64,000 bases of DNA from Raillietiella orientalis (GCA_036172245.1 JAYWIR010000113.1:1-64000); one strand, 5' to 3'. Counted from the first letter of the stretch, positions 22,071-52,550 are shown. Notes: generated by a model from the letters alone, not told the origin. Made by a program: numbers and translations.

Positions 22071-22075
22071 GCGAC

Positions 22076-22101
22076 CCGCTTCGGGCGTTCCCGGGTGGCA
22101 A
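22076..22101 (+). mobile_element. Isolated 3'-terminal hairpin of a delta-type element
   Basis: cgcttcgggcgttcccgggtggcaa matches the delta 3' end at 47285-47311. Confidence 0.65.
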
Positions 22102-22211
22102 CACCAAATCCCCTTTGTGGAGAGAGTACGTGCTTTTTCTGCGCTCCTCCTGCGTGGCAAGGCGAGTGGTTTTCCCTTGAGTGGTTTGTGCGTTCACATC
22201 GTCGGTGTCCT

Positions 22212-23945
22212 ATGGCAGCGTTGCCAGAGGACACCGCGATGGAAGTAGGCGTGGGGAGGCTTGTTCGTCCCCACAGCCCACTGGATCAGAAGCATCCGCC
22301 TTGGAATCATCCCCGGCGGAGCCGAGGTCATGGAGCGCCATGGTGGCCGCGCCAAGCACGGAAACCTAGGCGGAGCAAGCGGCCTACAGGGCCTCAGGAT
22401 ATAAACCATCTCTCGTTTATAAGGTAGGACCCCTGTTTCATGGTCACTCCGGCCGGGCCTTCAGTAAGGCACTACAGGACTTCACTGTGAGAGAAGAGGA
22501 TGTTGACGGCCTCTCCGTACTCAGCGGGGGGCAGCGCGTGGAGGTCGTCAGCAAAGACGTGGCCTTAGCGCAGCGCCTTATTAGCACCCCGCTGAATGTG
22601 GATGGCCAAAAGATCCTACCGGTTAGCATGGACCGCTCCGTAGTGGTCCATCTAACCGGAATCACAAATCGGATGACGCGCTCGGCGGTGAATTCCGAAT
22701 TGATGAAATACGGAGAGGTACACGCGTTGTGGCCAAAGTTCACCATCTTCGAAGGGTTTCATAGCCATTTCGGAGGCCAGGCTGCAGCGCGTGTTACTGT
22801 CGATGAGGGTGCTGGGTTGCCCCACAAACTGGAGGTCGCGAAGGAATCCGTCGACCTCTGGTACGTGAAGAAACCCCACTATTGTAACTACTGCGATGCA
22901 GTAGGGCACTTGCGCAAGCGGTGCTTAAATATCGAGTGCCACTTGTGCGGGGTGAAGGGACAGGTTCGTCGCGTGTGCCACCTGCTGCCAAAGAGGCACA
23001 GGCAAAAAAAGGAAAAAAGGTCGAAAGACCTTACCACGAAACTGGACGGCCCCAGCCGCCATCTCCTGTTCCTCACACCCAGGCGTCGGAGGAAAAACCC
23101 GCTGAAGACGCGGGAGAGGAAGAAGGATGGAAGCTGGTAAAGGCCAGAAAAGAAAAAGAAAAAGTTCTCCCCGTGGAACCCGCGAGAGCGAAGAAAGGAA
23201 AGAGTGCGAAACCGAAAAAACCCCAGTCCGCGCTCGAAAACTCTTCTCGAGAGCACGGTGGCACTCGAACGGATTGCCGTTCCCGAGGCTGCCACTCGGG
23301 GCGACGAGCCTCCCCTCGCCGTTTCTGCCGCGCCCGAGGTTCGCGACGACGAATCCTCTGTTTGCACAGAGGGTGAGTCGCGCGAAGCACGCGCCGAAAG
23401 CGAAGACGCCGCGTTCGCGCAGGCGGCGGAGGAACCCGCGGCCACGCTGGCCGAGCGTGAAAACCCCTCACGCAAGGCCGTGCGAAGGCCCACTCCGGCA
23501 AAGAAGGCCCCCGCAGGTGAGTGCGACCTTGGGGCCGGAAGCACATTCTCCTCCTCGGAGGCATCCCTTGGAGGACGGGACGCAAGTCCCAGAAGCCGAG
23601 GATGCGCCTCCCCTCCACGAGCGAGGATGAGAAGACGGAAGCCGACGGTAGCTTTGGAATCCCGGAGGGGGTACTCCCACACGCAGAAGTCGTCGAGTCG
23701 ACCACCACCATAGAGGAGGGTGAGCAGCGGGCGAAGTCCCCCTTGCCGTCGCGGACCCTGCACAGCCCACCCCTATGGAGGAGGGCGAACAGGTAGGCAG
23801 GACCCCACCTGAGGGTGTCCCGCCCGACGCGCCTTCACTGTTGGAGAAGGGGGACCAGGTGCTCGAGGCAGCTGTCCCTCCTCCTTTACCTAACGTCCCG
23901 CCCCAACAGGTGACCGACTCCGCAGAGTGGATTTCACATGAATAG
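22212..23945 (+). pseudogene. ORF1 with two CCHC knuckles, disrupted
   Basis: MAALPEDTAMEV start; CNYCDAVGHLRKRC; CHLCGVKGQVRRVC; stops and frameshifts. Confidence 0.85.
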
Positions 23946-26900
23946 CACCTGGGCTCGCCTGTCGCCGTCGGATCCGCGTGGCCAGTTGGAACGTCAACGG
24001 GCTGCGCGACGACGGCAACAGACGAGATACGGCCGACACCCTGCGGGAGTTCGACCTAGCCCTGCTGCAGGAGATCCACGTGATCAGCTCAACAGACGTC
24101 CTGGAGTTCGGAACGATCGCGGGAGGTCGACAGTATTGGCGATGCGGCGCCCGCAACACCTGCGGGGTCGCGTTCTTCGTCAAGCCGGCCATCGACGCTG
24201 CCGTGAAGGGCGTACGCTTCGATAACGACGGTCGGGTCGGTCAGCTGATTCTCAGCTGGTCCGACTCGATCGAATTGATCGTCAAAAACGTGTACGCCCC
24301 AAGCGGTAAAAAGGGATACAGCGACCGTAACAGGTTGCTGGAGACCCTGGAGAGCGATTTGCTGGCCGACACGAATGTGCGGAAGGCACACCTGATAGCT
24401 GGAGACTTTAATCTCCGTCTGCTGTCAGGTGAGCCCGAAGCACAAGAACGCAGGGCCAACGAGTTGTGCGCTGCCATGCGCACGCGCAACTTGTTGGCAT
24501 ATGCGGAGGGAATGAACCGCAGCATCGAACACTTTTTCCTGGTTGCCGACCTGTGCTCACGGGTCCGCAAACGGGGGGAAGTTGCGTCGACGCTGTCGGA
24601 CCATTCCAGGATAATCGCCGAGGATTGCCGGAGCCACAAAGGACCCCCGTCCAGGGCGTGGCGGCTGCCTGGGGACTGGACGCGGCTCTCAGGAGCGAAG
24701 GAGCACCTACGCGAATTCCTGAGAGGCGTCACCCTCCGCAGTCTCAAAGATTGGGACCTCTTCAAGGCCTCGGTCCGCGAGTTCTGCAAGGAGTTCCCGC
24801 TGCACCGCTTGCCCCCCGGATTTGGGGAGGAAGCTTGGAAACATAGAGCCTATATGCAGGCCCGCCAATACGAGAGGACCCCCAATGTTTGTCGCCTGGC
24901 AGAATATCGAGCCGGGGCCGAGCGCCAAGCCTTGCAATCCGCGACGGCCAGCTTGCTGGACGACCAGGGCCGGGAGCGATCGGCCCCACCCGCGATCAGG
25001 CACCTTGTGCGGCATTATTATTCCTTCCTCTACGCTAGGGAATCCTCAGAGCGGGACGCATCACGGCTCCTGCTTCCGGACGGAGCCCTGGCAATAGGGG
25101 AAAAGAAAAGGATCAGCCTCGACGAGCCTTTTTCTAACGGTGAAATTCTCGCCTGTATTAAAAGGCTGAAGAGGCGTTAGGCGTCAGGGGAGGACGGACT
25201 GCCTGCGGAATCTTTTCGATGCTTCGCGGCAGAGCTGGCACCCCTGGTGCTTCAGTTGACCGGGCTGATCCGAGACGGAGGCGACGTTCCCGCCTCGTTT
25301 TGGTCAGCCCGTGTGAGGCTCCTCGCGAAGGGAGGAGACCTGAGATCCATAGGCAACTGGCGTCCGATGACAATTGTAAATACGGACGCGAATCTGGTCG
25401 CTGGACTGTGGGCTTTGCGTCTAAGACAGGTGGCAGACTCCATAATTAGCCCGGAGCAGACATACGCTGTTCCCGGGCGAAGTATTGATGCCAACCTGTT
25501 CTTCGAGAGCACGTGGTTCCATGTGCAGCGCTGCCTAAACGACGCTGGCAGAAAGATTGGCAGCCCCACTTTAGGGCCGCCAGCTGGGCTGAGAATGGAC
25601 ACCTGGGATGCGAAGGGGGCCCTGGCGATCGCGGTCGATCTGCATAAGGCGTTCGACTGCTTTGACCAGGAGCTACTGTTTTAGCTCCTGGGTAGCATGG
25701 GCTTCCCACCCTCCCTTCTCTGCTTCCTTCGCTCCTCCTGGCGCAACGCCATCGTCAACGATGCTTTTCTAGTCAACAGGTGTACGGCGTGCCGGTGCGG
25801 CTGGGCATACGGCAGGGCAATAGCCTCAGTCCCCTGCTCTTTAGCACCTACTTTGAGTTCGTGCTGAGAGCGTACAGGGTGACTTTGGATGCCCTGCCCA
25901 GCTCGTGCTTCGGCACGCCCGCTGTAGCAGCATACGCCGACGCCCTTCTGCTCATGTTGTTCATGTCCGCCCCGGCGGCCGCAGTCCAGGATTTCTTTGA
26001 CCGGCTAAGTCGTGGGACTGAACTTCGGGTAAACAAGCCGAAGTCGTCGGTCGTACCGGTGGGTGCGACGTAAGTCGGACGGCCTGAGTGGATCCGCCTA
26101 GGGATCAACGCGGCCAGGTACCTGAAGTACCTAGGTGTCCCGTTGGGGGACTTCTGCCTCGCAGAAGCCTGGTAAGGTCGTCTCCAAAATGTGGAGTTAG
26201 CAATCGGCACGTTCCTGGAAGGCAAGATCCTTCTGCCGGAACGGGCCGCGGTGTGGAACGCGTTCACGGCTCCCATCCTCCGCCGCCTGCTTTTTGTTTG
26301 CCCCGTCCCCTGTGACATTAAAAAGAGGACCAAGATCCTACTCCGCATCGCCCTCTGGGGCAGCGCGAGGCCACGGTTGCCTCCAGATAACTTATGCGCA
26401 CCTCGCCTGCACGGCAGTCTCGTCCTCGTGACGCTAAAGCGCCTGGAAATACAGCTGCGATGGCGCACCCTCGCTATCGCAGCGAAGTCGTGGAGCACCC
26501 CTTGGTGCGTTCCGGCCCGCATCTTCGCCTGCCGTGTGTCCAGGACGCTAAGACTCGGGTCGTACCTTCTGTGCTCTAGCAGGAAGCTCAGAAGATTTGG
26601 CCTTCTCCTTGGGCGCATGGAAGCCCTGATAAGAGACAACGGCTAACGGTATGCAGCCCTGCCAACTCCTCCGCCTGGAAGGAGGAAGCCGTTGCGACGT
26701 GGGCCAAGCCGAACCTCCAGACTTCCCCGGACTGGAACCGCCTGCGATTCCGCCCCAACGCCTGCTGCACACTGCGGACTACTCTGGATTGTCCCGTCAG
26801 GAGCACGTGGACGAAGACTACCCCTCTAGCATCGACCCTGCCCTTCCTACGAAGGGCTTTAACCAGCGGCCGCAAGCCAAAGTGGCAAGTCTCCTGCCAA

Positions 26901-27503
26901 ATCGCAGGCAAGGAAAAGAAGAGGAGCTGTTGGACCATGGGAGAACTGGCAGACGCCACGACCCCGAGTGTCCTCCAGCGTGGACTTCGTAGATGGGGCG
27001 AGCTTCTCGACATCCAGACGGATAACCTGAAGTGGCCCCCAATATCAATAGGATCCAGGCTTCTCCCCCTGAAGTGACAAGAGTCGGCGCTGCTGCTGTT
27101 GCACTGGGGTCTACACTGCAACGCGCGCCGCTTCCCCTGGACACGGAAAAGTGTAAGGCCTTAGTGTGCAAGGTGTGGGGAGCGGGAAGCGCTCCCACAC
27201 CTACTTGTTGACTGTGCTGCCCTCCGACCCCTGTGAAAAAGGCTCAGAGACGTTCTTCGACCCCTCTTCGTGCGGGACGCCCTGCAGCCTGCCGCAGCCC
27301 TCGCAGCCCTCTGCTATATCCGGGGCATCGTGGCGGCCTAAGGCAACATTCGCGACGAAGGATTGGATGCCAACGCGAGGGATGTCATCCCGTATGCGGT
27401 CTGCTTCATGCGGAAAGCTGCGACATGGCCTCATCTGCGAAGCATAAAGAGGGACCTGGAGAGCATCTTGGGAAGGATGGGCCCTCCTCCCATTGGAATG
27501 TGA
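23945..27503 (+). pseudogene. ORF2 EN-RT-zf, disrupted
   Basis: ORFs 23978-25180, 25247-25684, 25780-26073 and 26191-26646. Confidence 0.88.
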
Positions 27504-27717
27504 TCCCTTCTCCTCCCCACAAACTCTTTTGGTTTTTTTTTCATATCCTAATTTTTCTTTTTGTTTTCATCCCCATCCCCCTCCACTGCGGAGGAGCGTC
27601 ACGCCGGGCTGCCCCCGGCACCCCTGCAGGTCCTGTGTTGTGTGGCCGTTAGTGGGGCCTCGTACCACGTTCTGTAGAGTTTTGAAAATAAACGCACCGG
27701 GCGTACCCGGGTGGAAA

Positions 27718-28480
27718 CCATAAATCCCGCAGGTAGGCGATGCAGGGGGAACTGGTCGTAGAACTCCTGGAACGACCGCTAGAAGCGCTCCCAGTTTTGA
27801 GGTGTCTGCACGCTGACGCTCCGAATAATCGCGCGGAGCTGTTCCGCCGCGTCGGGAAACTTCATGCAGTCCCCTGGCAGACGCCACGCTGACAAGGGGG
27901 CGTTCTTGTCGCGCGGACGCACTTCGAACATGATCCGACCATGGTCCGACAGCTCGGATGGTACCTTGCCGCGCCTGCCCACCCGAGAGCATAGGCGCTG
28001 ATCAAGGTACACGTGATGGATGCTGCTTCCCATGGCCGTATCCCCGGCCAACAAGTTGCGCGTGTTCATTTCTGCGCACAACTCGTTGATGCGGTCGTCC
28101 AGTGCATCCGGCGCACCTGAAAGCAGGCGCAGATTGAAATCACCTACGATCAGGTGCGCTTTACGAACTCCTGCATCGGTCAGCCAATCGCGTCTCAGGG
28201 CAAGGTAGAATTCCCTTCTTGCCTTCGCCCTGAACGCGTTATTTCCGCTAGGAGCGCATAGGTTAGTGACGACCAGGTCGATAGAGTCGGACCAGCTGAG
28301 AGTCAGCTGATCGACGCGACCTGCGTCATCGAACCGAACGTCCTTTATTGCGGTCTCGATTTCTTGAGAAGCAAGAAGGCGACACCGCTTCATTCCGCGG
28401 TGCCCCAACGCCACAACAACCGTCCACCCGAGATCCGTTCGATCTCTTGCGCTCTTACAGTTCAGACGTGTTTCCGCGTC
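27718..28480 (-). mobile_element. Family beta endonuclease fragment cut at LPAGF
   Basis: ORF 27779-28492 (GDFN, SDH); close to 41536-42240. Confidence 0.85.
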
Positions 28481-28689
28481 TATGCGCGCCAATGATCGGG
28501 CATCTTTGTGCCTGCGTTTTCGCTCGCACTTGTGTGTTCCTGTGCAATCTGCCTAGTAGCATAGTGCAACATGTCCAGTACACAGGATAGTGTGGAGGAG
28601 CAAGCCACTGGATGCAATTCAGCTGCACTTGAAGTGGTTGCACACTCCGTAATGGTTTCCTCGTACCCAGTGAGGAGTTAGGCCGCCGT

Positions 28690-29791
28690 TACCTCCCAAA
28701 AACCAGGACTTTGCGATGCGGAGTTCCAGGCATATGTGTCATCAGGATACATGCCTGCACTCCGTTATAAGGTCAGTGCGCCCCTTAACGGGAGAATCGG
28801 TCGAGAGCTCAATGATGAGCTCGTGCGCATCCGCGTTCGCGAGGAGGAACTCCTTGCCACAATGCCAGCTGGAAGGATAAAATATACGAAGATTCGGTTC
28901 AAGAACGCAGCACTTGTGCAGCGCCTTCTCCGTATGCCGTCGACCACCAATGGAAAGGAAGTCGTACCTACCGCGATGGACGACTCTTTTGTCGTTCAAT
29001 TGTGCGACATCGAACCGGAAATCTCCGAGCGCGATGTCGTAAGTGTGCTGGCAAAGTTCGTCACCGTGCACGCTCTGTGGAGGAGGCCAATTCCTCTGAA
29101 GGATTTCCCCTCTGTCCACATTGAACAAGCCTCCGCGCGGATTACCGTCAAGAACAGGGGTGTTGTGCCTGAGCAGCTGTAGGTGAACGGCACGGTCGTT
29201 CACCTGTGGTTCATAGGCCAGACTTGCGCGTGGGAGCAGTGTGGCAAGCATGGGCACCGAATTATAGAGTGCCCCTCTCCAAAATGCTGCTATTGCAAGA
29301 TTCTGGTACTTGCAAGAAAAAGAGCCGCAGCGGAAATTCGTCGGTTTTAAGAGACCACTGCACGAAAAGCCGCAGCGACAAATAAAAAACGTCGTCCGCA
29401 AAAACTCGGAAAAAACAACGAGCGATCCTCGGATGAAAAGAAAGGGTCCCCGCCTACAACGCCCTGAAAGGGGAAAGTCACGGCGGGGAAGCCAATTAAA
29501 AAGGGGCGCGAGGATTTGACGCGTGCCGTGCCCTCCCTCCCTGCCGAACTCTCAGGCACCTCTCCGAGCCAGGAAACAGGTAATCTTCGTTTAACCCTGG
29601 AGGGAAAGGTAGGAAAACAGGAAGATCGCAACAGTGCGAATACTTGTTGCCCCGTTCCGTTGTCCCTTCCAAGTTCCGCACAGCCCTACTGCAGCGCAGG
29701 TCCCTCGGCAAAGGCTACGAAAGCCGTAAAAAGCAGCGTCACGATAAGCAAAAACCCGCTGCATGCAGTCGCCCCATCGCCGACTCGGCAG
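28690..29791 (+). mobile_element. Family epsilon ORF1, N-terminal half
   Basis: YMPALRYKVS...VHALWR; homologous to ORF 52605-53462. Confidence 0.8.
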
Positions 29792-30096
29792 TTTCCCCCA
29801 AGTCCAACGAGGGGTGGGGTAAATTTATCTTTCTAAAATTTTTCTATAAAAACATTCACACTAGAATCTCATCCATACCATTAGCACTTTGTTTACCACT
29901 ATGAAGTCCTTGGGTTCTCACACGTTCTGCACTCATGGTGGGTTCCCTGCTGTTTGGTCCCGGGCGTCGTCTTCTTTCCTCTTCAGGATGAATCGGTACG
30001 TCCACGCTCGGCTTTTCTCACAGATTCTAATGCCGATTTTCCTCTTCAGGAGCCCTTGTAGGATCTCCATCGGTGGTGCGGCACTTCTGGCTTTCC

Positions 30097-33449: not shown

Positions 33450-33462
33450 AAAAGGGGAAGAC

Positions 33463-35145: not shown

Positions 35146-35194
35146 GCTTCTATAGGGGACGACGGTCTCTCAGCCAGCAACGCCCCCAGAGAAC

Positions 35195-39646: not shown

Positions 39647-42242
39647 CGAGCCGACATGTCTTTTAACTGCTCCCGAATTCCGATTTCCGGTGATGTTTTG
39701 TGTGGTATGGGTGGAGGATTAGGCAGCAATGCCTGATTCCACCACCGGTGAGATTCTGGGGGCGATGACCCCATTGTCCCCGGAGGAGATGGAAGTGGGG
39801 GATCTTGCACCCAGTGATGCGCCCCCGTCCCCAGCCAGGGCTTGGAACGCCGTGGCTGCCGCGCTCACGCCGGCGGCTGTGGCGGAGATGCGGGCCTACC
39901 TGGAAGAGGGGTACAACCCACCCCTTCTATACAAGGTAGGCGGTTTATATTCTCCCGAGAATGCGCGCGCCTTCTCGCGGGAGATGCGCGCTATCGACGT
40001 AAGAAAGGGGTATCTTCTGGCAATGTCCGTCAGAAGCTGGGGACAATTCGCAGATGTAATCTGCAAGGAGGCAACTCTGGCGCAGAGGCATCTGCGAACC
40101 CCCGAAATGATGGGCAGCCGGAGGCTTCTTCCAATAACGGAACAGAGGTCGGTGATCATTCACTTGACCGGTATCACGTTAAGGATGACCAAGGAGGCCG
40201 TCCGGAACGAAATAAATAAATTTTGCGATCGTCAACGCACTGTGAGGGAAGCCAAACTTGTTTGCTCAATGCGACGGGTTTCTTGGCGGCCTGGGTGCAG
40301 CGCGAGTGGCGGTTCGCGAGGGATGTGAGTTTCCCCACAAACTCACCGTCAACGGTGAATCCGTTGACGTGTGGTACGTGGGGAAATCCAAGTTTTGCGG
40401 CTGCTGCAGCAGCTTTGGTCACCTATAAATGAGCTGTCCGAGCGTGCAGTGCGAGCAATGAAACAAGAGGGGCACACCCGTCTGGTGTGCCCCCAAAACA
40501 CAGTCCGCGTCGTGTCCGCGAAAAACACGAGAAAGCGCGAGGCAAAAAAGAGAAAGAAGCTGGCAGCTCGTGCTGCTGCTAAGGAGGTCACCTCCGCCAC
40601 CAAGGCGAAGGCCAGCCCCGAGACCCCGGCGAAAAACGCCGAAGAGGTCGAGGGCGAGGGTCAAGAGCCAGGGTGGCAGAAGGTGGACCCCAAGAAAAAC
40701 TCCCAGAAGAAGGGTAACAACGTGGAAGAACGGAGCAAAATTTATCCGCGCCGCGAAAAAATTAAAAGCTGCTGCGTCTTCGTAGAGCGGATTCATGCCA
40801 TCGACGAATGCGGCGCTAAAGAACTCGCTGCTGCCTCTGCTGAACCCTCTGTTGACAAAGTCAACAAGGAGGAAAGCGAGGCGGCGGTGTCCGTCATCGA
40901 GCCCACGCTCGATCACGTCGTCTTCAAGCGCGCCGCGGAGGAGCTGGCTGCCTCGTTGTAGCCTGCCGCCCATAAGGCTGGCAAGAAGGCCGTCAGGCGT
41001 TCAGTTTCCCCTCAGCAGTCGGCCACTTCCGACCCCTAGGTGAAGGCCGGAAACACAGCATCCATCTCCGCGGCACCCCGCAAAAACGCCGGACGAAAGT
41101 CTACAATGCCCCAGGAGATCGTCTTCCCCGACGAAGGGGAACAGATGGCTTCCGGTAGCGAGGGTGCCATGAGCGTGGGAAACTCCCGGGACCCGTCGCC
41201 CAAGAAAATTCCACGCTCGGACACGGATGGAATGGAGGGGATGGAGGCCGAACAGGTACTAAATGTGCCTGCAGAGGCCTCCGTCCTCGTTCTGATGGTC
41301 CTCGTACCGATGGACCTTACCCCACCTACGCCTCGACGCCACTTTCCCAGCCATAATTATGGGAATCGCCTCTCGCCGTCGTCTGCTGATCGCCTGTTAG
41401 AACGTCAACGGGCTAAGCGACGACGGCAATAGGCGTAACGTGGCTGCCACCCTGGCATCCTTTGACCCGGTGCAGCTGCAGGAGATCCACGTGAACGCCG
41501 CAGATCAAGCCCGGGAGATCGAACGGATCTAGGGTGTGCGGCTGTTGTGGCATTGCGGCACCGCGAAGTCAAGCGGTGTCGCCTTTCTGCTTCGGCCAGC
41601 CATCGAGACCGCTATAAAGGACGTTCGGTTCGATGACGCCGGTCGCGTCGGTCAAATGACTCTCAGCTGGTCCGACTATATCGTCCTGGTCGTCACCAAC
41701 CTATACGCTCCTAGCGCAAACTCTGCGTTGAGGGCGAAGGCAAGAAGGGAGTTCTAACTTGACCTGAGGCGCGATTGGCTGACCGATGCAGAAGTTCGAA
41801 AAGCGCACCTGATCGCAGGTAATTTCAACCTGCGCCTGCTTTCAGGTGTGCCAAATACACTGAACGACCGCGTCAACGAGTTGTGCGCAGAAATGAACAC
41901 GCGCAACTTGTTGGCCGGGGATACGGCCATGGAAAGCAGCATCGATTACGTGTACCTTGATCAGCGCCTATGCCTCGGGTGGACGGGCGCGGCAAGGTAC
42001 CATCCGAGCTGTCGGACCATGGTCAGATCATGTTCGAGATGCGTCCGCGCGACAAGAACGCCCCCTTGTCAGCGTGGCGTCTGCCAGGGGACTGCATGAA
42101 GTTTCCCGACGCGGCGGAAAACCTCCACGCGTTTATTCGGAGCGTCAGCGTGCAGACACTTCAAAACTGGCAGCGCTTGAAGCGGTCGTTTCAGGAGTTC
42201 TACGACCAGTTCCCTCTGCATCGCCTACCTGCTGGATTTGAA
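39647..42242 (+). mobile_element. Element 5' part (probably family beta): ORF1 and endonuclease, cut at LPAGF
   Basis: ORF1 from 39729 (SPEEMEV, YNPPLLYKV); ORF2 ATG 41359; GNFN, SDH. Confidence 0.85.
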
Positions 42243-45200
42243 GCTGCCACCCGGGTACGCCCGGTGCGTTTATTTTCAGAAACTCCTTAAAACGTGGTAC
42301 AAGGCCCCACTAACGGCCACACAACACAGGACCTGTCGGAGCGCCGGGGCCAGCCCGGCGTGACGCTCCTCCACAGTGGAAGGGGATGGGGATGAAAACA
42401 AAAACAAAAATAAGGATGAGAAAAAAAAACCAAAAGAGTTTGTGGGGAGGACAAGGGATCACATTCCAATGGGAGGAGAGCCCATCCTTCGCAAGATGCT
42501 CTCCAGGTCCCTCTTCATGCTTCGCAGATGAGGCCATGTCGCAGCTTTCCGCATGAAGCAGACCGTATACGGGATGACATCCCTCGCGTTGGCATCCACT
42601 CCTTCGTCGCGAATGTCGCTCCAGGCCGCCACGATGCCCCGGATGCAGCGGCGGTCTCCGAGGGGTGCGGCGGGCTGGAGAGCGTTCCGCACGAAGAGGG
42701 ACTGAAGAACGTCTCTGTGCGCGGCGCTTATTGGGAGGACGAGGGTCGTCATGAGCCGTTCCCACAGGGTTCGGAGGGCAGCACAGTCAACAAGTAGGTG
42801 TGGGAGCGATTCCCGCTCTCCACACCTTGCACACTAAAGCCTTACACTTTTCCGCGTCCAGTGGAAGCGGCGCACGTTGCAGGGTACACCCCAGTGCAAC
42901 AGCAGCAGCGCCGACAGTTGCCACATCAGGGGGAGAAGCCTGGATCCGATTAATATTGGGAGCCACTTCAGGTTAACCGTCGGGATGTCGAGCAGCTCGC
43001 CCCATCAACGAAGTCCGAGCGGGAGAACACTCGAAGTCGTGGCGTCTACCAGTTCTCCCATGGTCCAACCGCTCCTCTTCTTTTCCTTGCCTGCGATTCG
43101 GCAGGAGACTTGCCACTTTGTCTTGCAACCGCTGATTAGTGCCCTTCGTAGGAAGAGCAGGGTCGAAGCTAGAGGGGTAGTCTCCGCCCACGTGCTCCTG
43201 GAGGGACACTCTAGAGTAGTCCGCAATGTGCAGCAGGCGTTGGGGCGGAATCGTGGGCGGTTCCAGTCCGGGGAAGTCTGGAGGTTCGGCTTGGCCCACG
43301 TCGCAACGGCTTTTTCCATTTAAGCGGAGGAGTTGGCAAGGCTGCATACCGTCGAGCCGTTGTCTCTCACCATTGCTTCCATGCGCCCAAGGAAAAGGCC
43401 GCATCTTCTGAGCTTCCTGCCAGAGCACAGATGGTACGACGCGAGTCCTTGCGTCCTGGACACACGGCTGGCGAAGATGCGGGCCGGAACGCACCAAGGG
43501 GTGCTCTATGACTTTGCTGCGATAGGGAGGGTGCGCCATCACAGCTGTATGTCCAGGCGCTCCAGCGTCATGAGGCCGAGACCGCCGTCCCGACGAGGAT
43601 CACATAAGTCATCTTGAGGCACAGGTGGCCCTTTTCGCAGCCCAAGTGTCCATTCCCAACGCAGCTGGCGGCTTCAAAGTGGGATTGCCAATCTATCCGT
43701 TAGTGTTGTTTAGACAGCGCTTCACATGGAAGCATTTGCTCGCGAAGAACAAGTTGAAATCCATACTTCGCACGGGAACAGCGTATGTGTGGTCCGGGCT
43801 AATTATGGAGTCTGCCACCTGTCATAGTCGCAAAGCCCACAGTCCAGCGATCAGCGTGGCGTTCGTATTTACAATTGTGATCGGACGCCAGTTGCCTAGG
43901 AATCTTAGGTCTCCTCCCTTCGGGAGGAGCCTCACACGGGCTGACCGAAACGAGGCGGGTAGGTTGCCTTCGTCTCGGATCAGCCCGGCAAACTGACGCA
44001 CCAGAGGGGCAAGCTCTGTCGCGAAGCTTCGAAAAAATTCTTCAGGCAGGCCGTCCTCCCCTGGCGCCTTACGACTCTTGAGCCTTTTAATACCGGCGAG
44101 AATTTCCATGGTAGAAAAAGGCTCGTCGAGGCTGATCCTCTCCTCCTCCTTTATTGCCCTGGCTCCGTCCGGAAGCAGGCGCCGCGATGCGTCCCGCTTT
44201 GGGGTTGCCCTAACGTAGTGGGAGGAATAATAATGCCGCACGAGGTGCCTGATCGCGGGTGGCGCCGTTCGCTTTCAGCCCTGGTCGTCCAGCAAGCTGG
44301 CCGACCCGGATTTTCAGGCTTGGCGCTCGGCCCCGGCTCGATATTCTGCCGGGCGACGGACATTGGGGGTCCTCTCGTAACGGAGGGCCTGTAAATAGGC
44401 CATATGATTCCGAGCTTCTTCCCAAAATTCGGGTGGTAGGCGGTGCAGGGGGAACTCCTCGCAGAACTCACGGACCGAGGCCTTGAAGAGGTCCCAATCT
44501 GTGTGACTGCGGAGGGAGACGCCTCTCAGGAATTCGCGAAGGTGCTTCTTCGCACCTGAGAGCCGCGTCCAGTCCCCAGGCAGCCGCCACGCCGTGGACG
44601 GGGGTCCTTTGTGGCTTCGGCAATCCTCGGCGATTATCCTGGAATGGTCCGACAGCGTCGACGCAACTTTCCCCCGTTTGCGGACCCGTGAGCACAGGTC
44701 GGAACCAGGAAGAAGTGGTCGATGCTGCGGTACATTCTTCCGCGTCCGCCAACAAGTTGCGCTTGCGCATGGCAGCGCACATCTCCTTGACCGTGCGTTC
44801 CTGTGCTTCGGGCTCACCTGGCAGCAGACGTAGATTAAAGTCTCCAGCTATCAGGTGTGCCTTCCGCGTATTCGTGTCGGCCAGCAAATCGCTCTCCAGG
44901 GTCTCCAGCAACCTGTTACGGTCGCTGTATCCCCCTTTACCGCTTAAGGCATACACGTTCTTGACGATCATTTCGATCGAGTCGGACCAGCTGAGATTCA
45001 GCTGACCGACCCAACCGGCGTCATCAAAGCGTACGCCCTTCAAGGCAGCGTCGATAGCCGGCTTCACGAAAAACGCGACCCCACAGGTGTTGCGAACGCC
45101 GCATCGCCAATACAGTCGACCTCCCGCGATCGTTTCGATCCCCTGGACGTCTGCCGAGGTGATCACGTGGATCTCCTGCAGCAGGGCCAGGTCGAACTCA

Positions 45201-47274
45201 CGCAGGGTGTCGGCCGTATCTCGTTTGTTGCCGTCGTCGCGCAGCCCGTTGACGTTGCAACTGGCCACGCGGATTCGAAGGCGACAGGCGAGCCCAGGTG
45301 CTATTCCTGAGAAATGGGCTCTGCAACGTCCGCCACCTGTTGAGGCGGGACGTTAGGTGGAGTAGGAGGGACAGGTGCCTCGAGCACCTGGTCCCCCTCC
45401 TCCATCGGTGAAGGCGCGTCGGGCGGGTCACCCTCAGGTGGGGTCTCGCCTTCCTGTTGACCCTCCTCCATAGGGGTGGGCTGTGCAGGATCCGCGACGG
45501 CAAGGGGGACTTGTTTCCCTTGCTATCCCTCCTCTATGGAGGTGGCCGGTTCGACGGCTTTTGAGCGTGGGAATCCCGGAGGGAGAACTCCCGGATTCCC
45601 ACGCTGCAGCTTCCTTCCGGCTTCTCCTCCTCGCTGGTGGAGAAAAGGCTCCTCCTGGGTTTCTGGGACTTGCTCCCCGACTTCCCCGTTGGTGCCTCCG
45701 AGGAAAAGGATGCACTTCCGGCCCCCAGGTCGCCCTTACCTGCGGGGGCCTTCTTCGTCGGTGCCGGCCTGAGTACGCCCTTGCGCGACAGAGTTTCGCG
45801 TTCGGAGAGCGTTGTAGCGATCTCCTCCGCCGCTTTTCCCAACGCGGCGTCTTCGCCAGCGGCGACCGTTGCCGCGGGCTGCTCCACGACCTGATCGAGC
45901 GCGGCGTCATCACTGACGGACAACGTATTGCGGGCTCCTCCGCTACTTTATCGAGCGCGGCGTCCTGGCTGTCGGCGCAAGAGTCTCGCGTCTCACCCTC
46001 TAAACGTAGATTGCGCTCGTCTACGCGAGTATCCAGCGCGTCCGCATCAGCTGTTCTGTGAACATTGCCCCGGGCGGCCTCAGCAAGAACTGCTAAGCGT
46101 TTTAATGCCACCGAGCATTCGCGGAGTTGTTTTTTTGAAAGCGGCGCGGCTTTTTTCTTTTTGCCTGCAGTTTTCTTCTCCGACTTTTCTTCAGCCATCA
46201 TTTTGATTTTTTCTTTTCTGGCCTGAACGAGCTGCCAACCCTCCTCCAATCCCGCGTCCACGGGAGCTCTTTGCTCCTACGCCTGTGCGGGAGGAAGGGA
46301 GGCTGGCAGTTGGGAACGGCCATTTTCGCGAACTGGTCTTTCTACCAGCTTTCCACGTTTTCACTGCGCCTTTTTAGCGGCAGTGGGCACCGGGCTGGGG
46401 CTTTTGGGGCACAAGGACCGAACGTGACACTTTTCTCCGCATAGGTGGCACACAATGTTCGGGCACCTTTTTCGTAGATGACCAACTGCATTGCAGTAGC
46501 CTCAAAATTATGGTTGCCCCACGCACCAGAGATCCAACGCTTCTTGGTAGACCTCCAGCTTGTGGGGAAGCGCACCACTCTCTTTTCCGGTGACTCGTGC
46601 CGCAGCTTGACCCCCGAAAAGGCTATTGTATCCTTGGAAAATCGTGGGCTTTGGCCAAAACGCGTGCACTTCTGCGTGCTTCCGCCACTGATCACCAACC
46701 GTTGACCTAATCATGCGACTGGAGATCCCAGTGAGATGGAACACTACCGAGCTGTCCATCGTCATCGGCAAGATCTTCCGACCATCAACGATCAGCGGGC
46801 CGGTCATCATGCGTTGGGCCAAGGTGATATCTTTGCATAGCACCTCGACTCGCTGCCCGACGCTGAGGACGAAAAGGCCGTCAAGATCTTGTAAGAAGGT
46901 ATTGGCGTTCTGCAGCGCCTTCGTGAAGGCGCGTGAAGTTCGCCCATCGAAAAGGTTGCCTATCTTATAGACTAGCGAGGGTTTATACCTTGCTTTCTTG
47001 AAGGCTCCCATCTCGGTAATGGCTTCAACCCTAGGCGAGGCCACCATGGCGCTCCATGACCTCAGCTTCGCCGAAGATGATTCCGGGGCCGATTCACCTG
47101 ATCCAGTGGGCTGTGGGGACAAACAAGCATCCCCTACGCCTACTTCCATCGCGGTGTCCTCTGGCAACTCGGCCATAGGACGCCGACGGTGTGAACGCAC
47201 AAACCACTCAAGGAAAAACCACTGCCCTTGCCGCGCAGCCGGAGCGCAGGAAAAGCACGTACTCTCTCCACAAA
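42243..47274 (-). mobile_element. Family gamma element with internal deletion of the RT core near 43620
   Basis: ORF1 46508-47293; EN 44468-45268; NWRPI; the KAFD-YADD segment is missing; 3' hairpin at 42247-42274. Confidence 0.9.
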
Positions 47275-47284
47275 GGGGATTTTG

Positions 47285-50228
47285 TTTTGCCACCTGGGTA
47301 CGCCCGAAGCGTTTATAAATAAATCTCTACAATTGCAGTACCAGGTCCCGCTCGCGGCCTTATGCACGGGACCTACCGGGACACCGGGATGATGCCAGGC
47401 GTGGCACTCCCCGGCAGCGAAAGAGGATGGGGAAAAAAAAAAAAGAAAAAAAAGAAGTAAAAATAAAAACACAAACAAACAAAAGAGGTTGGAAGGCATG
47501 GAAGGGATCACTGTTCACTGATAGTGAAGCCCATCCGTTGAAGGAAGCCCTCGAGGTCCATCCGTCTATTCTTTAGTTGGGGCCATCCAGCAGCTCTCCG
47601 CAAGAAGCGTTGGGCATATGGGATGACATCCCTCGCGTGTTGACCCACTCCTTCCTTGTTGGTGTCGCTCCATGCCGCCACAATGCCTCGGACGCAGGAC
47701 AAGGCTGCAAGGGCTGCGGCTGGCTGAAGGGCGTCATTCACGAAGAGGGGTCGAAGAACGTCTTTAGGGGAACTGCCCGTAGGTTGACCGAGGGTCGTCC
47801 CAAATCGTTCCCAAAGGGGACGGAGGGCAGCACAGTACACAATAAGGTGAGAGAGCGATTACCGCTCTCCGCACCTGACACACACAGAATCCACAACTCC
47901 TCCTGTCCAGTGTTAGCGGCGTGCGTTGCAGGGTACACCCCAATACAACAACAGCAACGCCGACTCTTTCCACTCCAGGGGCAGGATCCTGGATTCCTGA
48001 ATAAGCGGGTGATACTTCAGCACATCCGTAGGGATGGCCAGCAGCTCGCCATATCTTCTCAGTCAACGAGGCTGAACCCTCGGGGTCGTGGCGTCCGCGA
48101 GTTGACCCATGGTCCAGCCGCTCATTCTCTTCTCCCGTCCCTCGATGCAGCAGAAGACTTGCCACCTTGGAGTCCGACTGCTGTAAAGCGAACTCCTCAG
48201 GAAAGGCAGCTCCGTAGCCAGGAAGTTTGTCTCTGTCCACGTGCTTCTAGCTGGATTCTCCAGGAGATTCCTCAGTGCAGCGAGCGTAGGGGCGCATCGG
48301 AGACGATTCCACGTTACGTGGCTTCTCTGGTTCACCAATGCTCACGTTCCAATATTTTCCTCCAGCCAGGCGGGAGAGTTGGCGGGGCAGCAAACCATCC
48401 AGCTGTTCTCCATGGCCAACGATGCCATGCGCCCGAGCTGTAGGCCAGCACTTCTGATCTTCCGGCCCGGGCACAGAAGAAAAGAAGCGAGTCCCTCGCA
48501 CCGGGACACACGACTGGCGAGGAATCGAGCCGGAATGCATCACGGGGTGCTCGACATCTTCGATGCGATGGCGAGGGTACGCCATCGCAAAAGTTTCTTC
48601 ACGCGCTTCAGCGTCAGGAGGTAAGTTCACCGTCACGACGAGGAACGCAAACGTCCTTCAAAAAGAATCCGGACCTCCCCTAGCCCCAAAGGGCGATGCG
48701 CAGGAGGTCCTTCGTCCTCTTTTTAACTACTCCTGGAGCAAGGCAAACAAAAAGCATGGGGCGGAGAATGGGAACCGCAAAGGCGTTCCAAACCGCGGCC
48801 CGTTCCCGCAAGTGAAACTTGCCTTCCAGGAACATGCCGATCGCCGTCTCGACTTTTTGGAGGCAGCTGGACCACGCTTCTGCACGGTAGATGTCCTTCA
48901 ACGGAACACCAAGTTACCTGAAGCACCTCGCCGTGGGAATCCCCAAACGGGCACAGTCTTTCTGCCCTGCCCAGACCGCTCCAACTGGCACCACCGACGA
49001 CTTCACCCTGTTAAACTGTAATCCGGCCCCACGGCTAAGCAGGTCGAAGAAATCTCCGACCGCCTTCGCCAAGGTGGACATAGGTAAGAGAAGCAGAAGA
49101 TCGTCGGCATACGCCGCTACAGCTGGCGTGCCGAAACACGAGCTCGGCTAGGGGGTTAAATTAACCCTGTGCGCTCTCAGCACAAACTAAGCGTAGGTGC
49201 TAAAGGGCAGGGGGCTGAGGCTGTCGCCCTTTCTTATGCCACGCCGCACCGGCACGCCATACACCTTTTGACCACTGAAAGTAATCGAGATTATCTCGTT
49301 CCTCCAGCAAGAGTGCAGGTAGGTAATCAAGGAGGGTAGGAAGCCCATGCGACCCAGGAGCTCCAAGAGGTGTTCCTAGTCAAAACATTGGAATGCCCTA
49401 TGGAGGTCGACTGCATTCGCTAAGGCCCCCTTTCCTGCATGAGGGTCCCTACTTTGTCCCACTGACGGCCCCAAAGTTGGATTGCAAATTTTCCCTTTCC
49501 CTTCTTTCTTACTCCTCTGCGTGTGCATCCATGTGCTCGCGAAGAAGAGGTTGGCCTCCATACTTCGCCCGTGAACATCGTAATTCTGCTCCGGGCTAAT
49601 TATGGAATTGGCCACCAGCCCCATATGCGAAATAAACAGTCTGGCAATTAGCTTGGCGTCCGCATTCACAATTGTGATCGGACGCCAGTTGCTGAGTTTC
49701 CTGAGGTCTCCTCCTTTCGAAAGGGGCCTCACACTGGCTGGCCGAAACGAGGTGGGTACATCGCCTTCATCTGGGTTAAGCCTTGTGAACTCAAGCACCA
49801 GGGGTGCCAACTCTGCCGCGGAGCATTGAAAAAACTCCGTGGGTAGGTCCTCCTCCCCTGTTGCTTCCCGCTTCTTGAGCTTTTTTATACCGGCGAGAAT
49901 TTCGCCGGGGGTAAAAGGCTCGTCGAGGCTTCTTTTCTCCTTCTCTTCTATTACCGATGCACCGTCCGGAAGCAAGCGCCGGGAAGTATCCTGGTCCCGG
50001 GGCGACCTGGCGTAAAGAGAAAAATAATAACGCCGCACGAGGTGACGTATTCTAGCCGCAGCGGAGTGCTCTCGGCCCTGGTCATCCAGCAAGCTTCCCG
50101 ACTTGGATTGCCAGGCTTGAGGTTCGGCCCCAACTCGGTACTGTGCCAGGCGACGGACATTGGTGGTCCTGGCGTAACGACGGGCATACAAGTACGCTCG
50201 TTCGTTACGGACCACCGCGCCGCATCCC
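47285..50228 (-). mobile_element. Family delta element, 3' part (linker, RT, zf, 3' UTR)
   Basis: ORF 49376-50215 (NWRPI, DLHRAF), YADD near 49100; UTR ends ataaacgcttcgggcgtacccaggtggcaaaa. Confidence 0.88.
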
Positions 50229-52550
50229 GTGGCGAGCGGACGTGTTTTTCCTTCGCTCCCGAGTGAGTCGACAGGAAGCGGTTTTTTCTATTGTTGTTTG
50301 GTGTGGAACATCGTTGGTGTCCGATGGCAGCGATGCCTGAGGACACCACGATGGAGGTAGGTGTGGGGGAGGCTTGCCCACCCCCACAGCCTACAGAATC
50401 AGGGGCGTCCGCCCCGGAATCGCCCTCGCCGCTCAAGGCGAGGAGCTGGAGCGCCATGGTGGCCGCGCCGAGCGCGGAAACCATGGCCGAGATGGCAGCC
50501 TACCGGGCAGCTGGGTACAAGCCCAGCTTGGTATACCAGGTAGGCAATCTCTTTGACGGGCGAACTGCACGCGCTTTTTCGAAGTCGCTGCAGAACGGCA
50601 ACGTGTTAGAAAAGGATCTTGACGGTCTATCCGTGCTCAGCGGGGGTCAGCGCGTCGAGGTTGTCTGCAAGGACATCACCTTGGCGCAAAGCTTGATTAC
50701 CACCCCGCTGAACGTGGACGGACGCAAGATCCTACCAGTCACGATGGACCGCTCCGTAGTGGTACATCTGACTGGCATCACCAGCCGCATGACGCGGTCT
50801 GCGGTTGCGGATCAGATGAAAAAATACAGAGAAGTCCACGCGTTATGGCCTAGGGCCACAATCTCCGATGGCTACGATAGCCTTTCCGGAGGGAAGGCCT
50901 TCCCGCGTGTGACGGTGAAGAAGGATAGTGGGCTTCCCCACAAACTAGAGGTCAATGACGGAGTCGTAGAACTCTGGTACGTGGGGAAGACATGCTTTTC
51001 TGGCTAATGAAATGCAGTAGGCCATCTGCGCATGCGGTGCCCGAACATTGTGTGCCACTTATGCGGGGAGAAGAGCCACGTGCGCCGCGTATGCCCAAAA
51101 CGCCCCACCCCGGTGCCGCCTGTCGCAAAGAAAGCGCAGGCAAAACACGGAAAATTGTTCGAAAAACCAAAGAGAGATACTGGCCGGCAGCAGCCGCTAG
51201 CCCCGGTTTCTCCAACACAGGCGTCGAAAGAAAAACTACCGAAGACGTGGGAGTCCAGGAGAGCTGGCGGCTGGTTAAGGGCAGGAAGGAGAGAAAGGTG
51301 CCCCTCGCGGAACCCGCGAAAGCGGTAAAAAGGACAGCAGGCAAGGCGAAAAAACCTGGGCCGCGCGCCAAGTCCATGCGGGAATATACGTTGGCACTGG
51401 AACGCATAGCCGTTCCCGAGACTGCCAGCCGGAGAGACGAGCCTCCCCTCGCCGTTTCCGCCGCGCCCGAGGTTTGCGACGGCGAACCCTCTGTTTACAC
51501 ACAGGGTGAGCCGCGCGGAATAGCGACGGTCGAATTCGAGGACGCCGCGTTGGTGCAGGCGGCGGTGGAGCTCGCGGCCACTCTGGCCAAGCGTGAGTTC
51601 CCCTCGCGCAAGGCCGTGCAAAGGCCGGCTCCCGCGAAAAAGGCCCCTACAGATAAATTGGACCTGAAGGCCGGAAGCACAACCTCCTCCTCGGAAGCAC
51701 CTCCCTAGAAGTCAAGACGCAAGTACTAGAAGCCCAGAAGGCGCCCCCTCTCCACCAGCAAGGACTACAAGCAGGAAGGTAGCGGTAGCGTGGGAATCCC
51801 GGAAGGGGAACTCCCACGCTCGGAAGCCGTCGAGCCGGCCACCTCCATGGAGGAGGGTGAGCAGGGGGGCGAAGTCCTCCCTGCAGTCGCCGAGCCTGAA
51901 CAGCCCGCCCCCATAGAGGAGGGCCAACAGGTAGGCGCGACCCCACCTCAGGATTACGCGCTCGAAGCGCTCTTACCCATGGAGAAGGGGGACCAGGTGC
52001 ACGCAGCGCCTGACCCTCCTCCTCCACCTAGCGTCCCGCCCCAACAGGTGGCGGACGCCGCATCGCCATCTTCCCAGGAGTAACACCTGGGCTCGCCAGT
52101 CGCCGTCGGATTCGCGCCGCCTGTTGGAACGTCAACGGGCTGCGCAACGACGGTAACAGGCGAGATACGGCCGACACCCTGCGGGAGTTCGACCTGGCCC
52201 TTTTGCAGGAGATCCACGTGATCACCGCGGCGGACGTCCAGGAGATCGAAACGATCGCGGGGGATCGGCTGTACTGGCGATGCGGCCTCCGCAACAACTG
52301 CGGGGTCGCGTTCTTCGTGAAGCCGGCCATCGACGCTGCCGTGAAGGGCGTGCGCTTCGATGACGACTCTCGGGTCGGTCAGCTGACTCTCGGCTGGCCG
52401 ACTCGATCGATCTGATCGTCACGAATGTGTACGCCCCAACCGGTCAAAAGGGATACAGCAACCGTACCAAGCTGCTTGAATCCCTGAAGCGCGACTAACT
52501 GGCGAACACGAACGTGCGGAAGGCTCACCTGATTGTGGGAGATTTCAATC
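50229..52550 (+). mobile_element. Family gamma element, 5' part, cut at endonuclease GDFN
   Basis: ggacgtg at 50238; ORF1 ATG 50324 to TAA 52083; CWNVNG, LQEIH, IVGDFN. Confidence 0.88.
50238..50249 (+). promoter_or_regulatory. Putative internal promoter motif GGACGTGTTTT (DPE-like)
   Basis: Recurs within about 15 nt of the 5' end of several elements (8465 minus, 22126, 39652 decayed, about 47262 minus, 52557). Confidence 0.55.

Follow-up and report, generated by a model that had tools for sequence, protein, structure and literature searches.

Antisense junctions of gamma and delta LINEs at the L-P-A-G-F-G codons of sibling ORF2 sequences in a repeat cluster of Raillietiella orientalis

The window analysed here is a stretch of 64,000 nt from Raillietiella orientalis (GCA_036172245.1 JAYWIR010000113.1:1-64000), and all of the evidence comes from this one window. 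At least 16 LINE fragments belonging to five or more families lie nested or in tandem across the 64 kb. The window appears to be a nest of at least five L1/Tx1-like LINE families with an APE endonuclease (EN), a reverse transcriptase (RT) and a candidate C-terminal zinc motif. The nest resolves into properly nested insertions, and the longest open frames are in E62, the innermost copy. PF03372 (APE endonuclease) was matched in E62 (E = 2.2e-15), gamma1 (2.2e-11), E52 (3.4e-08) and gamma2 (1.2e-07), and PF00078 (reverse transcriptase) was matched in E62 (6.6e-18) in the same ORF, downstream of EN. The putative zinc motif (PF13966, C-terminal zinc-binding motif) scored 23.8 bits against a curated cut-off of 27.5. 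Two domain features of APE-type (L1 superfamily) LINEs, an N-terminal apurinic/apyrimidinic-like endonuclease in ORF2 and an RT downstream of it, are present.

The best named protein match of the window ORF2 is 'Transposon TX1 149 kDa protein' at 25% identity, which is the only lead to the Tx1 clade, and the closest solved structure by sequence is human L1 ORF2p (E = 1.4e-31; PDB 8uw3, 8sxt and 8c8j). The only close protein relative found, P0009, is 68% identical to the RT of E62; for longer relatives, the best match in the protein search covered 31% of the query at 36% identity. A metagenome scan with the EN-linker alignment of seven window ORFs returned 10 pattern matches, none of them a relative, and a metagenome scan with P0009 returned seven loci of 22-61% identity over short stretches and no close relative. 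The features in the part of the window considered below are given in Table 1.

Table 1. Coordinates of the gamma and delta elements, their hosts and the adjoining tails and target copies, counted from the first nucleotide of the window.
Feature	Coordinates	Strand	Description
X, delta-like 3' end remnant	22076..22098	+	23 nt, ending ..CGCTTCGGGCGTTCCCGGGTGG; array 2 homology begins at 22076
Tail and left target copy of gamma1	22099..22112	+	7-nt tail caacacc and AAATCCC, then C-TTT
gamma1	22117..27721	+	Full length; 5' end GTGGAGAG; ORF1, then APE endonuclease, then RT
gamma1 3' end and tail	27714; 27715-27721	+	Conserved 3' end ..CCCGGGTGG at 27714; tail aaaccat
host1	27722..28446	-	5' part of a beta-like element, EN region to G-F codons
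host2	39653..42239	+	5' end to G-F codons (..CTACCTGCTGGATTT); 91% identical to host1
gamma2	42240..47271	-	5' end 47271; conserved 3' end 42247; tail cagcttc 42240-42246
Left target copy of gamma2 and delta tail	47276..47289	-	AAATCCC 47276-47282; tail caaaaca 47283-47289
delta	47290..50228	-	3' part of element, G-x-G-x-x-VRNER codons to 3' end ..CCCAGGTGG
gamma3	50229..52550	+	5' end (GTGGCGAGCGG) to GDFN codons of EN, where E52 begins

The original prediction placed gamma and delta inserts antisense in the L-P-A-G-F-G codons of the linker between EN and RT. The three strings that it quoted are present (ccataaatcccgcaggtagg at 27718-27737, cttcaaatccagcaggtagg as the reverse complement of 42224-42243, and gttacggaccaccgcgccgcatccc at 50204-50228, directly preceding gtggcgagcgg at 50229), and the observation of antisense junctions at these codons is confirmed. 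The address is a heptamer, GGGATTT, at the G-F codons within L-P-A-G-F-G, and lies about 65 residues past the endonuclease SDH motif of ORF2 in sibling L1/Tx1-like LINEs. Twelve copies of this position occur in the window, nine intact and three broken. In the alignment, the broken hosts (host1, host2 and delta) are interrupted at the same seven columns, at reference positions 2717-2726 of a 5.6-kb element, each time by an antisense insert.

host1 and host2 end in ..CTACCTGC(G/T)GGATTT (L-P-A-G-F), and in the delta host the sequence continues with GGGATGCGGCGCGGTGGTCCGTAACGAACGA (G-C-G-A-V-V-R-N-E-R), opening in sense with GGGATGC (50222-50228). Alignment of these ends to the intact copies shows the same seven columns on both sides; these form the overlap between the broken ends, and the spacing of the reading frame is preserved. 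The junctions at 27714/27722, 42247/42239 and 50228/50229 represent the two sides of a single address and not a pair of adjacent segments. The 50229 junction thus shares the address of the two 3' junctions, as proposed, and can now be assigned to its 5' side, with a 7-base overlap. The positions given for the gamma ends required correction: the conserved 3' ends lie at 27714 and 42247, with a variable tail of 7 nt after each, and the 5' end of gamma1 (GTGGAGAG) lies at 22117, position 22076 being the start of the 23-nt delta-like remnant upstream.

gamma1 is flanked by AAATCCC at 22106-22112 and at 27722-27728 (7/7 identical), the right target copy being the AAATCCCGCAGGTAGG with which the + strand of host1 opens. 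gamma2, in which the RT has an internal deletion of ~735 bp, is flanked by AAATCCC at 47276-47282 and AAATCCA at 42233-42239 (6/7 identical). The flanks of gamma1 and gamma2 have the form of a target-site duplication of constant length, 7 bp. At both gamma 3' junctions the heptamer runs unbroken into 700 bp of host ORF2, and GCATCCC directly precedes the 5' end of gamma3. The predicted use of the site by delta was also found, N7 and AAATCCC following the delta 3' end (47276-47298).

The conserved gamma/delta 3' end is AATAAACG, a small hairpin and GGTGG, followed by seven variable bases and then by the heptamer. The 5' end has the form GTGG(A/C)GAG..GACGTG. A search for this 3' motif gave six matches, of which five are element ends by context, and N7 and AAATCC follow four of these five. 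A gamma/delta-like 3' end at 971 adjoins a truncated alpha copy downstream and has no AAATCC after its tail. Every family ends with AATAAA(C/T)G, a hairpin with a 5-bp stem and a short tail that is specific to the family. Runs of A are absent, and so is the poly(A) or simple-repeat 3' tail of APE-type LINEs. Folding of six 3' ends gave a small hairpin in each, with weak z-scores (-2.3 to +0.2), so the hairpin is supported by its positional conservation and not by energy.

AAATCCC as such is not enriched in the window (11 copies versus 8.6 expected). Five further AAATCCC heptamers in the window carry no insertion, and E1, E59 and E36 have a perfect GGGATTT at the site, yet are empty. The lack of enrichment, together with the many other breakpoints in the cluster, is what would be seen if unrelated breakpoints had coincided by chance in a heavily rearranged repeat cluster. 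This is scarcely credible, given three breaks in the same seven columns of a 5.6-kb unit with antisense orientation in 3/3. Moreover, CCCRGGTGG-N7-AAATCC occurs four times in the window (22090, 27706 and, on the - strand, 42255 and 47298) and in none of 100 dinucleotide shuffles, a comparison that takes the copies as unrelated and ignores kinship among them. A scan of genome contigs for the junction pattern gave no matches.

It is probable that gamma (three copies) and delta entered AAATCCC antisense by target-primed reverse transcription, in the linker codons of sibling ORF2 sequences. AAATCCC corresponds on the host sense strand to GGGATTT, the G-F codons of L-P-x-G-F-G-x-x-V-R-N-E-R between EN and RT. 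A nick by the element's EN at GGGATTT^G in the host sense strand would expose the 3'-OH that primes the cDNA. A cut of the opposite strand seven bases off (AAATCCC^G) would then give the 7-bp target-site duplication. As the target would be restored on both sides, the same address would be open to a second element, which may account for the head-to-tail delta-gamma arrays. The constrained codons of relatives would remain usable as targets while those relatives stay functional.

The heptamer could instead belong to the terminus of the element itself, as a 5' leader or as a 3' tail that is copied along with the RNA, perhaps by read-through or by a jump from one LINE RNA template to another. Its match to L-P-A-G-F at the host junctions would then be coincidence or a microhomology used in joining, with no endonuclease specificity behind it. 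Head-to-tail joins with no target between them do occur (from the 3' end at 971 to E1 and from the 3' end of E62 to E59, both E1 and E59 being truncated). The alpha tails (ATCGAAYGC) match the alpha target exactly and are also found on E8, which is not located at that target, and delta and X have the same base at 5/7 positions of their tails, as if inherited. However, the GCATCCC at the gamma3 5' end is part of the host and keeps the register and reading frame of the host ORF (antisense of G-C, then G-A-V-V-R-N-E-R), and a terminus of the element accounts neither for the continuation of the heptamer into host ORF2 at both 3' junctions nor for three hosts broken at identical columns. Such an origin is therefore very unlikely.

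The weight of the recurring junctions depends on the kinship of the copies. The gamma1 array (22076-28446; array 1) and the gamma2 array (47310-41515; array 2) form one inverted repeat of ~6.4 kb that extends through both junctions, with ~90% identity in the element and ~91% in the 700 bp of host flank, and the order of delta-type end, heptamer and gamma is common to both. The caveat in the original prediction that the junctions at 27717 and 42243 may not be independent was justified, as 27714 and 42247 are inside this repeat of ~90% identity; the case for independence is weak, and the two arrays may descend from one array. The further claim that 50229 is an independent event is not established. 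host2 (ref 1-2726, +) and delta (ref 2717-5616, -) are complementary parts in opposite orientation, and an inversion between the inverted heptamers would give the same sequence; the 50229 junction is independent only if they are not halves of one inverted element.

E35 and E36 form a similar complementary and oppositely oriented pair, which is more inversion-like. Their junction (36599/36607), with CAAATCC after the E36 tail, was considered as a fourth linker-site junction and rejected by translation: it falls at codons ..Y-L-L-G-F, ~92 nt upstream of the linker site (site 2), and E36 starts at the next codons. Twin priming was rejected for E35/E36, in which the direct and inverted parts are in the wrong order.

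One or very few ancestral insertions may thus have been multiplied and rearranged later, array 1 having arisen from array 2 as an inverted segmental duplicate, and host2 and delta being one element whose 3' part was inverted together with gamma2 through a GGGATTT/AAATCCC exchange. In that case, the recurring junction tells little about target choice. We regard this history as unlikely, though it would explain why ~90% identity extends alike over element and host flank in the 6.4-kb inverted repeat, why the two arrays are built alike, and why the non-overlapping, opposite host2 and delta join seamlessly and in frame once the 7-mer is set aside. The E35/E36 pair would be such a rearrangement occurring in the window. 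A history of this kind is also consistent with the sequence to the left of array 1 (21325-22075), which is not the other half of host1 that would be expected; in this stretch, no similarity to ORF2 was detected by tblastx of 19000-22100.

Several differences between the copies argue against multiplication. gamma1 and gamma2 have 7-nt tails that differ at five of seven positions (2/7 agree) within flanks that are 92-95% identical, the 303-column alignment around them having 271 identical columns, and the ORF1 regions of the two are only ~68% identical versus ~90% elsewhere. host2 is nearer to alpha (70-74% identity versus 62-63% to gamma), whereas delta is nearer to gamma (72-73% versus 64-65% to alpha), which argues against both being halves of one element and would require that element to be a mosaic. 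Likewise, E35 is 54% identical to host2 and E36 is 80% identical to delta; if both pairs were halves, mosaics would be needed. Finally, even with multiplication, insertion directed by the heptamer would still be needed to produce the tandem arrangement (3' end, N7, AAATCCC, 5' end) and the heptamers on either side of the full-length gamma copies.

Junctions at a fixed ORF2 address are also seen in the alpha family. The K-A-F-D codons of RT motif A are the address of all three alpha-family junctions with a host flank, and the hosts are from two or more families. Alpha-family elements probably behave at K-A-F-D in the same way as gamma and delta at the linker. Further addresses are represented by single cases, E52 at the GDFN codons, E28 at ref 2006 and host2 at ref 2640. 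In EN, the families differ in the segment from GDFN to the I-D-H motif. The suggestion that each family has a private site gains from the three alpha junctions and has exceptions in the 3' end at 971 and the five empty AAATCCC heptamers; its basis is the three to five junctions that this one window offers for each address.

Human L1 nicks DNA at TTTT/AA, a loose consensus, and uses poly(A) for priming. The window elements have the EN-linker-RT order of human LINE-1 ORF2p but, unlike human L1, terminate in a hairpin with a short tail and are associated with a fixed heptamer. LINEs of the R1/R2 type are rDNA-specific and use one conserved site in a multicopy, constrained target, with a precise 3' junction; the endonuclease of R2 is restriction-like. 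The target described here is similarly conserved, multicopy and constrained, and re-use of the site can likewise yield tandem copies, for which work by McGurk and Barbash is said to offer a comparison. However, the R1/R2 target is a host rRNA gene, whereas the target here is the coding sequence of other retrotransposons.

Going by the available portions of their descriptions, the closest precedents are Tx1-Mar in Mariner and the nested Zepp clusters. Tx1-Mar families are described as inserting at fixed positions in the Mariner-N4_AMi transposon (Kojima 2015, PMC4494074), in which there are two preferred regions, sibling families differ in preference, and one region is used in the orientation opposite to the host (PMC4494074). 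The elements here resemble Tx1-Mar, so far described, as APE-type LINEs at fixed positions in another transposon with family-specific regions. They differ in having sibling LINEs from their own group as hosts, in place of a DNA transposon, and the conserved ORF2 codon blocks L-P-x-G-F-G and K-A-F-D as addresses.

Zepp and ZeppL of green algae are reported as L1-type LINEs in nested, tandem clusters (Blanc 2012, PMC3446292; Craig 2021, PMC8226300) that are GC-richer than the remaining genome (PMC3446292; PMC8226300). The window shares with them nested and tandem clusters of the element itself; the likeness is to the architecture as described, and protein searches for window ORFs returned no algal name. 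A fixed nucleotide address and family-specific addresses, as proposed here, are not named in the portions of the Zepp descriptions considered (PMC3446292, PMC8226300). Set against Zepp, no element here carries a poly(A) tail, and full-length copies are numerous. In literature judged largely from titles and abstracts, no description was found of LINE families targeting codons of a sibling LINE ORF2.

A broader reading, put forward tentatively and more doubtful than the insertion mechanism itself, is that a guild of sibling LINEs lives almost only inside one another, with endonucleases retargeted to separate, selectively frozen blocks of ORF2, entry always antisense, one gene shared out among the families as distinct landing sites, and self-growing LINE-only islands as the result. 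If so, RT motif A (K-A-F-D) would serve alpha, and the linker L-P-x-G-F-G would serve gamma and delta. Mutation of the target would kill the host element, and the logic of R1/R2 in rRNA genes would have been transferred to retrotransposons.

If the pattern is genome-wide, related APE endonucleases with distinct and precisely known sites, GGGATTT^G versus the KAFD-codon site, would be available as material for mapping the endonuclease loops behind sequence specificity in L1-type elements. On algal LINE clusters, the literature, in the portions considered, goes no further than 'targets existing copies' (PMC3446292; PMC8226300). A genome-wide pattern would provide a sequence-level growth mechanism for LINE-only clusters, as at algal centromeres, and would be a clean case of transposons landing safely in each other's constrained coding sequence.

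Stop-to-stop ORFs across the window matched the APE-type endonuclease (EN) PF03372 (best E 2.2e-15) and the reverse transcriptase (RT) PF00078 (E 6.6e-18); a zf-RVT match fell below threshold. Human LINE-1 ORF2p is the closest protein of known structure (E 1.4e-31); among named relatives, the best is annotated 'Transposon TX1 149 kDa protein' and shares only 25% identity. Self-comparison of the window resolved at least 16 LINE fragments, which were placed on the copy gamma1 (ref = window coordinate minus 22098) and assigned to families by pairwise identities (see table). The nest of LINEs is broken up by a lower-GC retroelement of a different kind. E36 is a mosaic, with a delta-like early RT region and an alpha-like 3' region (68% identical to E1, versus 53-54% to gamma and delta) that carries a tail of the alpha type, TGAAAATCGAGC. 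In gamma2, an internal deletion of ~735-750 bp has removed part of the RT (43627-43630 versus gamma1 25621-26369).

Families and coordinates of features in the window
Feature	Family	Coordinates (strand)	Identity or remark
E1, E5, E8, E59	alpha		78-91%
host1	'beta-like' pair	27722-28446 (-)	91% to host2
host2	'beta-like' pair	39653-42239 (+)	91% to host1
gamma1	gamma	22117-27721 (+)	76-93% within family
gamma2	gamma	42240-47271 (-)	76-93% within family
gamma3	gamma	50229-52550 (+)	76-93% within family
delta	delta	47290-50228 (-)	80% to RT part of E36
X		22076-22098	23-nt delta-like 3' remnant
E36	mosaic; RT part delta	36607-39652 (-)	RT part 80% to delta
E35	epsilon	35815-36599 (+)	
E19/20, E52	epsilon		
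E62	singleton		
Lower-GC retroelement		about 29800-35700 (-)	RT match 31650-32762, E 2.1e-09; CCHC zinc knuckle 33463-34272
Tandem duplication		35735-35835	..ccgtgatgagggcaatcgcctcttctcgtcgtgctg.. twice, just upstream of E35 EN region
3' ends examined		27670-27721, 42240-42291, 47283-47334, 5010-5063, 56262-56315, 59724-59775	

According to the original prediction, gamma and delta copies are inserted antisense into the L-P-A-G-F-G codons of the ORF2 linker. The three flanks quoted for it were present as described and were aligned with nine copies in which this part of ORF2 is unbroken. In this alignment the broken copies host1 (- strand) and host2 (+ strand) both end after ..CTACCTGC(G/T)GGATTT, and the delta copy that hosts gamma3 begins with GGGATGCGGCGCGGTGGTCCGTAACGAACGA; hence the junctions at the 3' and 5' ends represent two sides of one address (site 2). 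The two sides overlap by 7 columns, and the insert is antisense to its host in all three cases. Site 2 comprises the G-F codons of the block F-P-L-x-R-L-P-x-G-F-G-x-x-V-R-N-E-R-A-Y, which is kept in all families and lies ~65 residues past the EN S-D-H motif, making 'linker' a fair description. The observation was confirmed in a sharper form, as one address entered antisense with a duplication of 7 bp. The most probable explanation of these junctions is site-directed insertion, which may represent only two to three independent events in the window.

A fuzzy search of the window for the gamma 3' end gave six matches. Five are real ends by context, with AATAAACG upstream and homology stopping there; the sixth (38457) lies inside E36 ORF2 and was rejected. 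Four of the five ends read ..CCC(G/A)GGTGG, then 7 variable bases (caacacc, aaaccat, cagcttc or caaaaca), then AAATCC, and CCCRGGTGG-N7-AAATCC matched four times in the window and in none of 100 shuffles. The fifth end (971) reads ..GGGTGT plus aaacctc and passes directly into the 5'-truncated E1. AAATCCC stands on both sides of full-length gamma1 (22106-22112 and 27722-27728), AAATCCC (47276-47282) and AAATCCA (42233-42239) border gamma2, and GCATCCC directly precedes the 5' end of gamma3. Judged by their sequence, these heptamers look like a 7-bp target-site duplication. The left heptamer of both arrays (X, gamma1 and host1 in array 1; delta, gamma2 and host2 in array 2) is preceded by a delta-type 3' end and tail, belonging to the remnant X and the 2.9-kb delta, respectively; the order of events would therefore be delta first, then gamma into the regenerated target. 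AAATCCC occurs 11 times in the window (8.6 expected): three times at junctions, three at intact site-2 copies (E1, E36 and E59) and five elsewhere. None of the latter eight carries an insert, and the heptamer alone is insufficient for insertion.

In all families the 3' end consists of AATAAA(C/T)G, then a 5-bp-stem hairpin that varies in sequence with pairing preserved, and a short family-specific tail; comparison of these ends revealed no poly(A) tail in any LINE family of the window. If these elements follow the TPRT mechanism established for LINEs, a nick at GGGATTT^G in the host sense strand would supply the 3'-OH that primes cDNA synthesis at the RNA 3' end, which bears the conserved small hairpin, then TGG and the 7-nt tail. 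This tail could be either an inherited sequence that changes rapidly or a non-templated addition. A second-strand cut at AAATCCC^G would generate the 7-bp duplication, and persistence of both target copies would leave the address re-usable and give rise to head-to-tail arrays.

A history of duplication plus inversion is an unlikely account of the site-2 junctions, in which GGGATTT of an element 'host2+delta' would have recombined with an AAATCCC-type copy at a downstream gamma2-gamma3 tandem junction. Host2 covers ref 1-2726 on the + strand and delta ref 2717-5616 on the - strand; the two are indeed complementary and oppositely oriented with gamma2 between them, and inversion between inverted heptamers would yield exactly the sequence seen. 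E35 and E36 form a second such pair: E35 ends ..E-H-L-C-*-Y-L-L-G-F, the codons that follow (..T-L-R-N-L-A-D-W-D) are the first of E36, and the E36 3' tail plus 7 nt joins the two. This pair is ambiguous between an inverted 3' half of one element and a third recurrent address; as a fourth site-2 junction (last bases of E35 GGATTTG) it was dropped, being ~92 nt upstream of site 2. The 5' end of host2 (39653) meets E36 at ref 2640, the same codon as the E35/E36 break. However, host2 resembles alpha (70-74%) more than gamma (62-63%) and delta resembles gamma (72-73%) more than alpha (64-65%), and with E35 versus host2 at 54% and E36 versus delta at 80%, the 'reconstituted' elements would share 3' but not 5' halves. 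These affinities are not decisive, since mosaics such as E36 are present. Even under inversion, heptamer-directed insertion would be needed to account for the tandem junctions and flanking heptamers; only the claim of repeated hits on the ORF2 position as such would fall.

With regard to INDEPENDENCE, the original caution that the junctions at 27717 and 42243 might not be independent was justified, while the certainty placed in the independence of 50229 was not, as an inversion would give the same sequence. When 21900-28700 was globally aligned with reverse-complemented 41260-47480, a single inverted repeat was seen from 22076 to about 28446, ~90% identical across the gamma 5' UTR, ORF2 and 3' UTR and ~91% across 700 bp of host flank. 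Insert and host have diverged to the same degree and the delta-then-gamma order is shared, both of which favour common descent of the arrays. Against plain copying of one array, the 7-nt tails of gamma1 and gamma2 agree at 2 of 7 positions within a surrounding alignment identical at 271 of 303 columns, and the ORF1 region (gamma1 22296-23747, gamma2 47090-45600) is only ~68% identical, compared with ~90% elsewhere. These identities suggest an exchange of the ORF1 module between lineages. We infer one of two histories, either separate insertions by two gamma sub-lineages into different copies of a single host family, or duplication of an array that was subsequently converted from a further gamma/site-2 junction; under either reading, more than one site-2 junction allele seems to have existed. 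The gamma1 and gamma2 junctions (27714 and 42247) were not counted as independent.

In RT motif A, the K-A-F-D codons form a second address (site 1). E1 and E59 end there antisense, their 3' ends (5052-5060 and 56261-56271) adjoining the codons in E5 (alpha) and E52 (epsilon), respectively, whose flanks are unlike each other, and the full-length 5' end of E5 (8467) adjoins a + strand RT fragment (8472-8610) starting ..A-H-K-A-F-D-S-V-N-E-N-L-L-L-E-L. Thus, every alpha junction in the window with host flank (3/3) is antisense at K-A-F-D. The alpha 3' tail ATCGAAYGC has the same sequence as the antisense strand of the target, which leaves the exact junction ambiguous over 9-11 nt. Within the window, site 2 holds no alpha end, and site 1 no gamma end with host flank. 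The EN segment from G-D-F-N to I-D-H, which carries the DNA-contacting hairpin in L1-type endonucleases, differs between alpha (VRLKPDGQNPERDLV..NLLVSAPGMEDS) and gamma (LRLLSGEPEAQERRA..NLLAYAEGMNRS); this fits separate specificities but does not prove them.

There are exceptions: the gamma/delta-like end at 971 lies upstream of E1 within the site-1 array, and the E62 3' end (..CCGGGTGTGAACAAGCG) lies upstream of the 5'-truncated E59. Other ends, including that of host2 in E36, are single cases. The E8 tail is followed directly by the 5' end of another element (11480/11481), the E52 5' end is joined in sense to the G-D-F-N codons of gamma3 (52550/52551), and the E28 5' end meets host1 in antisense orientation at ref 2006 (28446/28455); GACGTGTTT occurs near the start of all three full-length 5' ends. 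In the two exceptions, 971/E1 (956-979) and E62/E59 (59700-59740), the copies are joined head to tail with no target sequence between them, each upstream of an alpha copy at the K-A-F-D site; an occupied site may have been targeted again, or template jumping may have occurred. The proposal that sibling families partition ORF2 into private sites is a reasonable hypothesis backed by two addresses, with no demonstrated rule.

The right half of the window can be read as properly nested insertions: E35 contains E36, which contains host2, and host2 in turn the delta-gamma2 array; gamma3 lies in delta, E52 in gamma3, and E62/E59 in E52. The longest open frames belong to E62, the innermost copy, and the closing halves of all nested elements are expected past base 64000.

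In the portions of the literature searched, no LINE families were found whose fixed addresses are conserved codon blocks in the ORF2 of their siblings; the original Zepp papers may bear on this. Targeting of other transposons is known from Tx1-clade LINEs. Crocodilian Tx1-Mar families use two fixed regions of Mariner-N4_AMi with preferences differing by family, one region being used in the opposite orientation (PMC4494074).
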